Shown here: piece by piece, positions 4,852 through 18,343 of the stretch
Numbering within the stretch: the first letter of the stretch is position 1
How the letters are laid out: the number at the start of each line of letters is the position of its first letter
Assembly (NCBI GenBank): GCA_036679645.1
Contig: JAZDCY010000001.1
Coordinates: 1 to 18,343, forward strand
From: Gemmatimonadota bacterium
GTDB lineage: Bacteria > Gemmatimonadota > Gemmatimonadetes > Gemmatimonadales > GWC2-71-9
DNA length: 18,343 nt
Direction: 5' to 3'
The notes under the pieces: generated by a model
What the model was told of the DNA's origin: nothing
The model's input: only the letters and a program-made list of their open reading frames with translations
Databases searched by the model: none
Position numbers and translations under genes: made by a program

Positions 4852-5232
4852 CTACGGCGGCGTGGGCCCCGAAACTCTGATATCCAGCGCACGCTCGACC
4901 CGCTCGACCATCACATCAGCGAGATCCAGAGCCGCCAGCGCGAGCGCCCGCAACGCGTCGCCCACGGTCTGCGAGAACACCGTATGTTCGACGTCCGCTG
5001 AGCCAGGCTGCGATTGTTTCGCCGCATCGCGCAATCGTCGGAGGGTGTCATGCAGCATTTCGTCGGCGCGTTGGCGGTTCGCGACAGTGTTGGGCCCGAT
5101 AGTTCGCTGCCGCCACTTTCCACTGTCCGTCCATTCGATGCGGACTCTTCCGCCACTCACGTAGCGACGCCCCACGAACGGCGGGCTGCCAACAGTGAGA
5201 GTGTAACGCGGATCACGCGTTCGTCCGGCCAT
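4852..5232 (-). CDS. Hypothetical protein; N-terminal half resembles an integrase arm-type DNA-binding domain
   Basis: GRVRIEWTDSGKWRQRTIGPNTVANRQRADEML fits the beta-beta-beta-alpha pattern of tyrosine integrase N-termini; no catalytic domain; start at ATG 5232 uncertain. Confidence 0.55.
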   Translation of the reverse strand: MAGRTRDPRYTLTVGSPPFVGRRYVSGGRVRIEWTDSGKWRQRTIGPNTVANRQRADEMLHDTLRRLRDAAKQSQPGSADVEHTVFSQTVGDALRALALAALDLADVMVERVERALDIRVSGPTPP

Positions 5233-5283
5233 ATGACCATTACGCGTGCACGTCGCCGCGAGTTGCAAAGCCACGCCGCCGCA

Positions 5284-5299
5284 CGGCACAGATCGTGCT
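5284..5299 (+). promoter_or_regulatory. Putative sigma54 (-24/-12) promoter
   Basis: CGGCACAGATCGTGCT: GG (5285-5286), 10 nt, GC (5297-5298) versus consensus TGGCACR-N4-TTGCW; predicted TSS about 5310. Confidence 0.55.
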
Positions 5300-5309
5300 T
5301 CACCTAGTC

Positions 5310-5425
5310 ATCGCGGCCGTCGGGCGGTAAGCCCTGGGACCTTCCTAAATCGAACCTGCCACGGAGCGAGACCGTTGACAGCCCGCACCACAAGAGAAAG
5401 AGCCGGGATTTCCCGGCTCTTTTTT
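5310..5425 (+). ncRNA. Candidate ~115-nt small RNA, family not recognised
   Basis: Lies between a sigma54-like promoter and a + strand terminator with no credible + strand gene. CGGGC (5321-5325) can pair with GCCCG (5381-5385), and there is an internal CCTTCCT motif. Confidence 0.5.
5397..5425 (+). terminator. Intrinsic terminator (possibly bidirectional)
   Basis: AAAGAGCCGGG-ATTT-CCCGGCTCTTT followed by TTT; the longer T run is on the + strand. Confidence 0.85.
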
Positions 5426-5503
5426 GTTGCGCGGAACGCCGTTACATAGCGCGCGCTTCTCCGACCCGGACAATTCTTCCGGCAGTTGTTTCCGCCTATT
5501 CGC

Positions 5504-5785
5504 TCAGCGGTCGTAGCACCAGAGCGAGTCCCGTGTAGCTTCCCCAACCTCGAGATGACATGCCCGCTCGGCGAGCAGCGCGTGCCCTCCGGTAGCGGTG
5601 AACAACACCGAGTCGGCGCGGTCGATGCTGATCGTCACGTCGCGCAGCATCACGAACGCCGAGCCGATCTCGTCGATTGAGTGGGCAAACCGACCGCTAT
5701 CGACACGGAATTGCTCCTGCGCGTATCGCAAGTTCTCGAGATCCGACCTGATCTCCGTTTCGTACGCTTTCTCTTTCGGGGAGCA
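5504..5785 (-). pseudogene. Type IV pilin-like globular domain without a recognisable N-terminal leader/TM helix
   Basis: KEKAYETEIRSDLENLRYAQEQFRVDSGRF...FTATGGH...C...C resembles the pilin segment after the hydrophobic helix. In-frame starts (TTG 5869, GTG 5884) give no signal or TM segment. Confidence 0.45.
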
Positions 5786-5954
5786 GCCGGTGGGCGAGAC
5801 CCCTCCAACATGGGCGGTCGCCGCGCGCTCGCAAGCGTGGCCGCGCGGCTTGCCGACTTGATGCGCCAAGGGGCAGGTGTACACTTTCAGGATACCACGC
5901 GCCGCCGTCAAGGGAGAGTCCCAGCGGCCAGCCGCCTCGCATTGGAGACAAGAA

Positions 5955-17337: not shown

Positions 17338-18343
<1,006 letters not shown>

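Follow-up and report, generated by a model that had tools for sequence, protein, structure and literature searches.

A unit at positions 5284-5425 of the window, as we call the whole 18,343-nt stretch of Gemmatimonadota DNA analysed here, can with little doubt be regarded as a real non-coding RNA gene, its transcription being predicted from the DNA itself. The first-pass annotation had proposed an undescribed, sigma54-dependent small RNA (sRNA) at this place. Sequence conservation, covarying pairs, a promoter retained by all 10 members, neighbours that change and the lack of any match in Rfam now support an uncatalogued, stand-alone and probably sigma54-driven sRNA. How the RNA acts is a more tentative matter: the full account that we prefer, in which a conserved, stand-alone non-coding RNA gene transcribed by sigma54 RNA polymerase would titrate a protein through the shape of its apex, is held as a whole at slightly less than an even chance.

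The 10 members counted are the genome holding the window (G000), a metagenome contig closely related to the window locus (L104), G001 of the same genus (g1, which also includes G002), G003 and G291 of a second genus (g2), and G307, G343, G394, G371 and G272 of a third (g100); eight of the 10 have the short form of the RNA. X2 and X3 denote contigs of public sequencing runs.

The predicted RNA gene and its promoter

The features of the unit and of the region upstream of it are the following.

5205..5221, no strand: candidate activator (enhancer) site, AACGCG-N5-CGCGTT as an inverted repeat that spans -105 to -89 relative to the predicted +1
5284..5299, + strand: sigma54-type -24/-12 promoter, CGGCAC-N5-GTGCT, with GG at 5285-86 and GC at 5297-98
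5310..5425, + strand: predicted non-coding transcript of 116 nt, its start set by promoter geometry and its end by the U tract
5313..5386, + strand: single long hairpin of irregular shape, interrupted by internal loops and, within CGGAG (5362-5366), by a bulged A, from the minimum free energy (MFE) fold and covariation
5342..5356, + strand: apical mini-hairpin, a 3-bp UUC/GAA stem closing a loop of 7 nt (CUAAAUC) and continued by CC, the resulting GAACC being conserved
5394..5425, + strand: intrinsic terminator, core 5400-5419 and U6 at 5420-5425

The -24/-12 motif placed at 5284-5299 by the first-pass annotation is present in the sequence, and since its GG-N10-GC spacing is canonical (10 nt) the promoter geometry puts the presumed +1 at A5310. 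RpoN is present in 5/5 genomes searched, and 14 activator-like genes were recognised by motif in G000. A looser form of the motif, YGGCAC-N5-NTGC, occurs at 89 sites in the 4.05-Mb G000 genome, eight of them intergenic according to our own crude gene calls (3340 genes), and the window motif is alone among the eight in having a terminator 60-260 nt downstream. The sigma54 motif is kept in 10/10 members, and sigma54 very probably drives the RNA gene, a dependence that we infer from the promoter sequence. The inverted repeat at 5205..5221 sits within the first codons of a divergent 126-codon ORF and is unchanged in L104, where that ORF is broken (0/20 changes in 5203-5222, 5/7 in 5223-5229); the G000 genome holds three exact copies of it. 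Its role as an activator site is speculative because a search allowing 3 mismatches failed to find it in the upstream regions of the seven other members tested. No IHF consensus was found upstream of the nine members tested (9/9).

The strong plus-strand terminator proposed earlier was borne out: its core, GAGCCGGG/CCCGGCTC at 5400-5419, is followed by T6 at 5420-5425, the hairpin has a z of -5.5 with 0/200 shuffles equally stable, and the terminator is kept in 10/10 members. It is also usable on the minus strand, more weakly, with a weaker U-rich tail. The 5394..5425 terminator was absent from the output of a simple terminator scan of the window. The changes found at the terminator in X2 are confined to loop positions 5409 and 5410 and one extra T. 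As for the body of the RNA, both stems named by the first-pass annotation, CGGT/ACCG and GCCCTGG/CCACGGAGC, appear in the MFE structure, but the body alone (5310-5396) folds no better than shuffles (z -0.9; 35/200 shuffles as good). No small ORF common to the members was found, and the transcript is predicted to be non-coding.

The novelty suggested earlier also held against Rfam: at gathering score (Rfam 15), the only matches in the window were to 16S rRNA, the gene for which starts at 17338-18343 (+) at the contig end. In E-value mode the best score was 20.4 bits, driven by the terminator, and neither the nine homologue loci (0 matches) nor the G003 region matched any Rfam family.

Constraint, homologues and covariation

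The unit is under purifying selection. In L104, 5/116 bases of the RNA are changed, as against 123/398 third-codon positions of the neighbouring GSDH-family gene (p ~1e-10), and 74/283 and 23/110 columns are changed in two nearby intergenic regions. Within the body (5310-5386) the count is 3/77, and the L104 change U5375C turns a G-U pair into a G-C pair; the promoter has 1/16 bases changed, towards the consensus, and 6/10 are changed in 5300-5309, between -12 and +1. X3 lacks 4950-5202 and 5603-5851, that is, most of both flanking ORFs, and differs from the window at 10/200 bases in 5240-5439 vs 38/400 in 5203-5602. Eight of these 10 changes are listed (5279; 5293 in the spacer; 5302, 5304 and 5307 between -12 and +1; 5348 in the loop; 5389 and 5390 in the linker), and among those listed the spacer base 5293 is the sole change in the promoter. 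The upstream ORF is lost in both L104 and X3, which may belong to a single lineage. L104 was the one real locus among 29 matches of a metagenome pattern scan, and scanning contigs from metagenomes and genomes for exact 20-mers gave 0 matches, which a variant at 5348 explains.

More diverged homologues were sought with three models: R1, from the single sequence; R2, from the window, L104 and G001, thus g1 only; and R3, which includes G307. BLASTN, the route proposed by the first-pass annotation, returned only three short chance matches when 5240-5480 was compared with 60 relatives and missed the G001 homologue, whereas homologues were indeed obtained by other routes. The G001 copy (L067:12092-12246) was located by its synteny with the GSDH gene and comprises the promoter, one long hairpin and the terminator; folded alone, its RNA adopts the same long hairpin. 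In g2, R2 matched G003 with 38.5 bits (E 2e-5 per genome, 39 genomes searched) and G291 with 37.3 bits, the G291 copy being 96% identical to that of G003. A consensus sigma54 promoter lies ~100 nt upstream of the R2 match in G003, beyond the model, and yields a 225-nt form; over a transcript of this length, about 225 bases, G003 and G291 differ at 6. This g2 form (L163:705-800 in G003; L177 in G291) has a ~95-nt 5′ extension with hairpins of its own. In g100, R2 gave 26.8 bits for G307 (E 0.014 among 150 genomes, alone not significant) within a series of 26.8, 25.6, 23.2 and 16.8 bits, and missed the G272 copy; R3 found the remaining g100 genomes (4/4, with 61, 58, 57 and 26 bits), with the promoter motif at a constant offset. 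For comparison, terminator-only matches score 22-29 bits.

The copies share a fold. All short-form members (8/8) adopt the one-hairpin structure, as do 11-23% of shuffles, and the 3-bp stem with a 7-nt apical loop appears in the MFE structure of 6/8, whereas the 300 shuffles of each member gave it 0-3 times. G000 and L104 form the apical stem from UUC/GAA, G001 from CUC/GAG, and G343, G394, G371 and G272 from CAC/GUG; in G307, 2/3 of its pairs form. The covariation check proposed earlier thus turned up homologues with compensatory pair changes and a preserved promoter: 11/31 pairs are changed on both sides in alignment A9, 21/31 in A13, which holds 10 members from three related groups and was fitted to the structure (92% of cells paired vs 35-49% when slid), and 9/27 in A14, an unfitted MAFFT alignment of seven members read by RNAalifold.

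Several other searches returned little. The promoter combined with CCTTCC matched at control level in 201 genomes; a core pattern gave 18 matches in 301 genomes, only G001 being real; and promoter+YTCCT+TCGA matched in 44 of 401 genomes, about the control level, and of these no genomes but G000 and G001 could be recognised. Run on 61 genomes, R1 did not recover even the G001 copy, and its match in G014, without promoter and terminator, was dropped. With only 20 candidates scored in each of 150 genomes, R2 missed G003, and 7/8 of the R2 matches outside g1 were dropped for want of a sigma54 motif. Weak R3 matches in G004, G008, G012, G049, G039 and G000:C18 look terminator-only and were likewise dropped; another, in G011, spans 27 nt. 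A GTDB pattern scan gave 49 matches and two candidates. A refined but insensitive pattern search of 241 family and 156 phylum genomes identified as real only G000 and the five g100 genomes, and the 14 other loci that it returned had no R3 match. The RNA was not found in G002 (g1, 89% complete), where search sensitivity was weak. Locus L165 (G021:C191:994-1112) has intergenic-looking hairpins and a terminator similar to those of the RNA family and is possibly another small RNA; no sigma54 motif was seen in the 250 nt upstream of it. A contig titled as a Coriobacteriia MAG carries, at L202:2001-2128 (+), an intergenic sigma54 motif, a terminator and a strong hairpin (z -3.4) that has UCGAACC within its C-rich loop and CGGAGC on its 3′ strand. 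It scores 19.8 bits with R2 and 16.7 bits with R3, and its features are biased because it was picked by pattern; it may be a remote member of the family or else a sigma54 sRNA in its own right.

Mode of action and competing explanations

In the mechanism that we favour, an enhancer-binding activator would fire, sigma54 RNA polymerase would transcribe the predicted 116-nt RNA, and the RNA would bind and titrate a protein through its 3-bp/7-nt apical mini-hairpin and internal loops. The supposed protein binding follows decoy logic of the kind known from GlmY. Recognition of shape by a protein is favoured because the apical stem covaries, the g2 loop holds no Shine-Dalgarno (SD) complement, the prediction of mRNA targets was null and none of Hfq, ProQ, RapZ (PF03668) and Ro60/TROVE (PF05731) was found (0/5 genomes searched for each). 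The five-genome sets differ between protein searches, carriers of the RNA making up 2/5 in the Hfq and CsrA sets and 4/5 in the RapZ, Ro60 and ProQ sets. CsrA was found in 1/5, namely in G000, with no match in G001, G002, G010 and G027; the CsrA gene of G000 (L158, G000:C84:18465-18614) adjoins an activator-like gene.

A serious, if doubtful, alternative is that the RNA pairs in trans, without Hfq, with ribosome-binding sites via its C/U-rich apex, a U-turn-like loop (CUAA/CUGA) starting the contact. The heptamer CCUUCCU (5340-5346), which the apical mini-hairpin overlaps, can pair with AGGAGG through one G-U wobble; at the corresponding position G001 is perfectly complementary to AGGAG, and G307, G343 and G371 are complementary to AGGUG. 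In g1 and most of g100 the loop retains a CCU run. An enrichment of SD-like words is seen ahead of G000 start codons (GGAG in 994 vs 218 of 3340 genes), an enrichment that is partly circular because the gene caller rewarded such words. Base-pairing sRNAs are known from Hfq-free bacteria. A precedent is CJnc230 of Campylobacter jejuni, which according to the sections cited is RpoN-dependent, ~98 nt long and equipped with an anti-SD CCUU (PMC11187230). In that same source, however, the motif is single-stranded and conserved, unlike the half-paired and variable apical heptamer of the window RNA. The first-pass annotation had taken CCUUCCU for a free loop, but UUC 5342-44 is predicted to pair with GAA 5352-54 (probability of being unpaired ~0.1 or less) and covaries with it; the heptamer also drifts between genera, becoming CACUCCU in G001 and CACACC(U/A) in g100, and it is absent in g2, where the apical loops of G003 and G291 have no SD complement. 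The anti-SD letters of the window thus vary in the manner of RNA pairs, unlike a fixed seed. The anti-SD mechanism has weak support. In target prediction, the best duplex of the loop over ~3340 G000 start regions (-25.5 kcal/mol) was equalled or bettered by 25/25 shuffled loops. No single-stranded, conserved anti-SD seed was found across the members, a result that presupposes that the g2 and g100 copies are kin; indeed, the case against mRNA pairing rests largely on these copies, whose kinship is probable.

We consider the g1, g2 and g100 copies probably related, a kinship inferred with the sequence-only reciprocal test having failed. It is unlikely that only the g1 RNA belongs here and that the elements of g2 and g100, though sigma54 sRNAs as well, are unrelated to it and have just promoter and terminator in common, which would make the RNA genus-restricted and its mechanism unreadable from them. 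Such a separation would fit the weak R2 scores and the reciprocal tests, in which sequence-only profiles of g100 or g2 bodies did not recover the window locus from the G000 genome, a G001-alone sequence profile likewise missed it, and a g100 promoter+body profile placed it at rank 11 (E 14); a G001+g100 profile with promoter ranked it first, with E 0.49. It fits less well with the distance from promoter to CGGAG, which is 76-82 nt in 7/8 short members, with CC(U/A)(A/G)A, GAACC and CGGAG common to the short members in constant order, or with the like apical shape. Moreover, the consensus promoter of G003 lies outside the model match, and its 32-nt loop matches that of G001 at 16/32 positions, ungapped.

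The neighbouring genes bear on whether the unit could be a cis leader or attenuator of the GSDH-like gene, with a sigma54 start and a ligand or protein deciding termination, an explanation that we regard as quite improbable. In g1 a GSDH-family (sugar-dehydrogenase-like) gene lies downstream, in L104 and G001 the terminator ends ~130 nt before this same-strand gene, and G307 too has a same-strand gene downstream, observations that favour a leader. In the window, however, ~420 nt including an opposite-strand ORF intervene between the terminator and the GSDH-family gene, and the RNA is still conserved. The downstream gene is convergent in 5/10 members (G003, G291, G343, G394 and G371), so that no same-strand gene is constant, which speaks for a gene standing alone rather than a cis leader. 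Moreover, no antiterminator common to G000 and G001 was seen by eye, and the GSDH gene would have a promoter of its own in a weak -35/-10-like site at 5858-5885 (+), the core of which is kept in L104 and G001 but which fell below the cut-off of the simple scan of the window. In g2 the neighbours are a convergent gene that looks peptidase-like (labelled by eye) and a divergent gene for glutamate dehydrogenase, the latter a possible hint of nitrogen control; in g100 they are a divergent gene for an LA_2272-repeat protein in 4/5 copies and a convergent kinase-like gene (also labelled by eye) in three.

The ORFs flanking the unit are themselves variable. The 126-codon ORF (4852-5232, minus strand), the middle of which is deleted in L104 and X3, has no Pfam or NCBIfam match, adjoins an HTH gene, also in G002, and has an N-terminus that may resemble an integrase arm-binding domain. 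Its homologues occur in 5/250 genomes, and none of the five has the RNA element upstream. On the other side, the ~420 nt at 5433-5851 are missing in both L104 and G001, and X3 has lost part of them; they hold the minus-strand ORF ending at 5504, which has no family match. Its C-terminal part presumably resembles type IV pilins, and as no pilin-like N-terminus was seen the ORF may be a fragment.

That there is no RNA gene at all, with a promoter motif due to chance and a hairpin that terminates the minus-strand ORF as a bidirectional terminator, is very improbable: 89 loose motifs per genome, a body that folds like shuffles and an expression that is a prediction would agree with it, but the body has 3/77 changes in L104, a promoter and a covarying fold are found in G001, and the case in which the hairpin merely terminates the 5504 ORF, raised by the first-pass annotation, fails on L104 and G001, which keep the whole unit without that ORF.

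Relation to known small RNAs and significance

The window RNA is probably a sigma54-driven small RNA in kind that falls outside every named family tested. Qrr of Vibrio, CrcZ and CsrB-RsmY/Z are small RNAs that are driven by sigma54 or titrate proteins. Hfq, on which Qrr and CrcZ depend, was found in 0/5 genomes searched here. Csr sponges carry many GGA hairpin loops, in contrast to the 2-6 GGA per RNA, mostly in stems, of the window RNA family, and CsrA occurs in 1/5 genomes. Bacterial Y RNAs differ by the 0/5 result for Ro60/TROVE (PF05731) and the lack of an Rfam match. Resemblances to SRP, 6S, tRNA anticodon loops and Y RNA were dropped, with no Rfam match and no such features common to the members.

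GlmY of Enterobacteriaceae, as the sections cited describe it, depends on GlrK/GlrR, IHF and sigma54 and acts as a decoy for RapZ (PMC3045617, PMC4152352). The window RNA resembles it in its sigma54-type promoter and in being stand-alone and presumably Hfq-independent, and protein binding, a property of GlmY, would be a further likeness; it differs in having no Rfam match to GlmY, RapZ in 0/5 genomes, one hairpin plus terminator and no IHF consensus. Pxr of myxobacteria is an sRNA of ~108 nt for which the part of the report cited indicates probable transcription by way of a sigma54 promoter (PMC5568312). According to the same part, Pxr forms a triple stem-loop adjoining the activator gene nla19, unlike the window RNA, which is one long hairpin with no adjacent activator and no Rfam match. 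CJnc230 is proposed, in the sections cited, to be processed from the flgE transcript, whereas the window RNA has a promoter motif of its own (PMC11187230). Literature searches found no description of this RNA and no paper on Gemmatimonadota small RNAs; two ncRNA surveys do not mention the phylum in their main texts, and their supplements might bear on novelty (PMC11109978, PMC8632094).

The analysis thus delivers a compact, well-delimited RNA with evidence of selection and covariation, in genomes that were searched without success for four known RNA-binding partners, and on these grounds the RNA is a ready bait for studying post-transcriptional regulation in abundant uncultured bacteria. If it acts by pairing with mRNAs, it would be one more Hfq-free sRNA, of modest interest. 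Should it act as a decoy, it would lead to an RNA-binding regulator with a link to sigma54 signalling. A bolder and rather unlikely proposal is that the RNA would be the first of a new class of sigma54-controlled decoys titrating an RNA-binding regulator where Hfq, ProQ, RapZ and Ro60 are lacking; given the similar promoter-hairpin-terminator unit in L202, such a class may reach beyond Gemmatimonadota.
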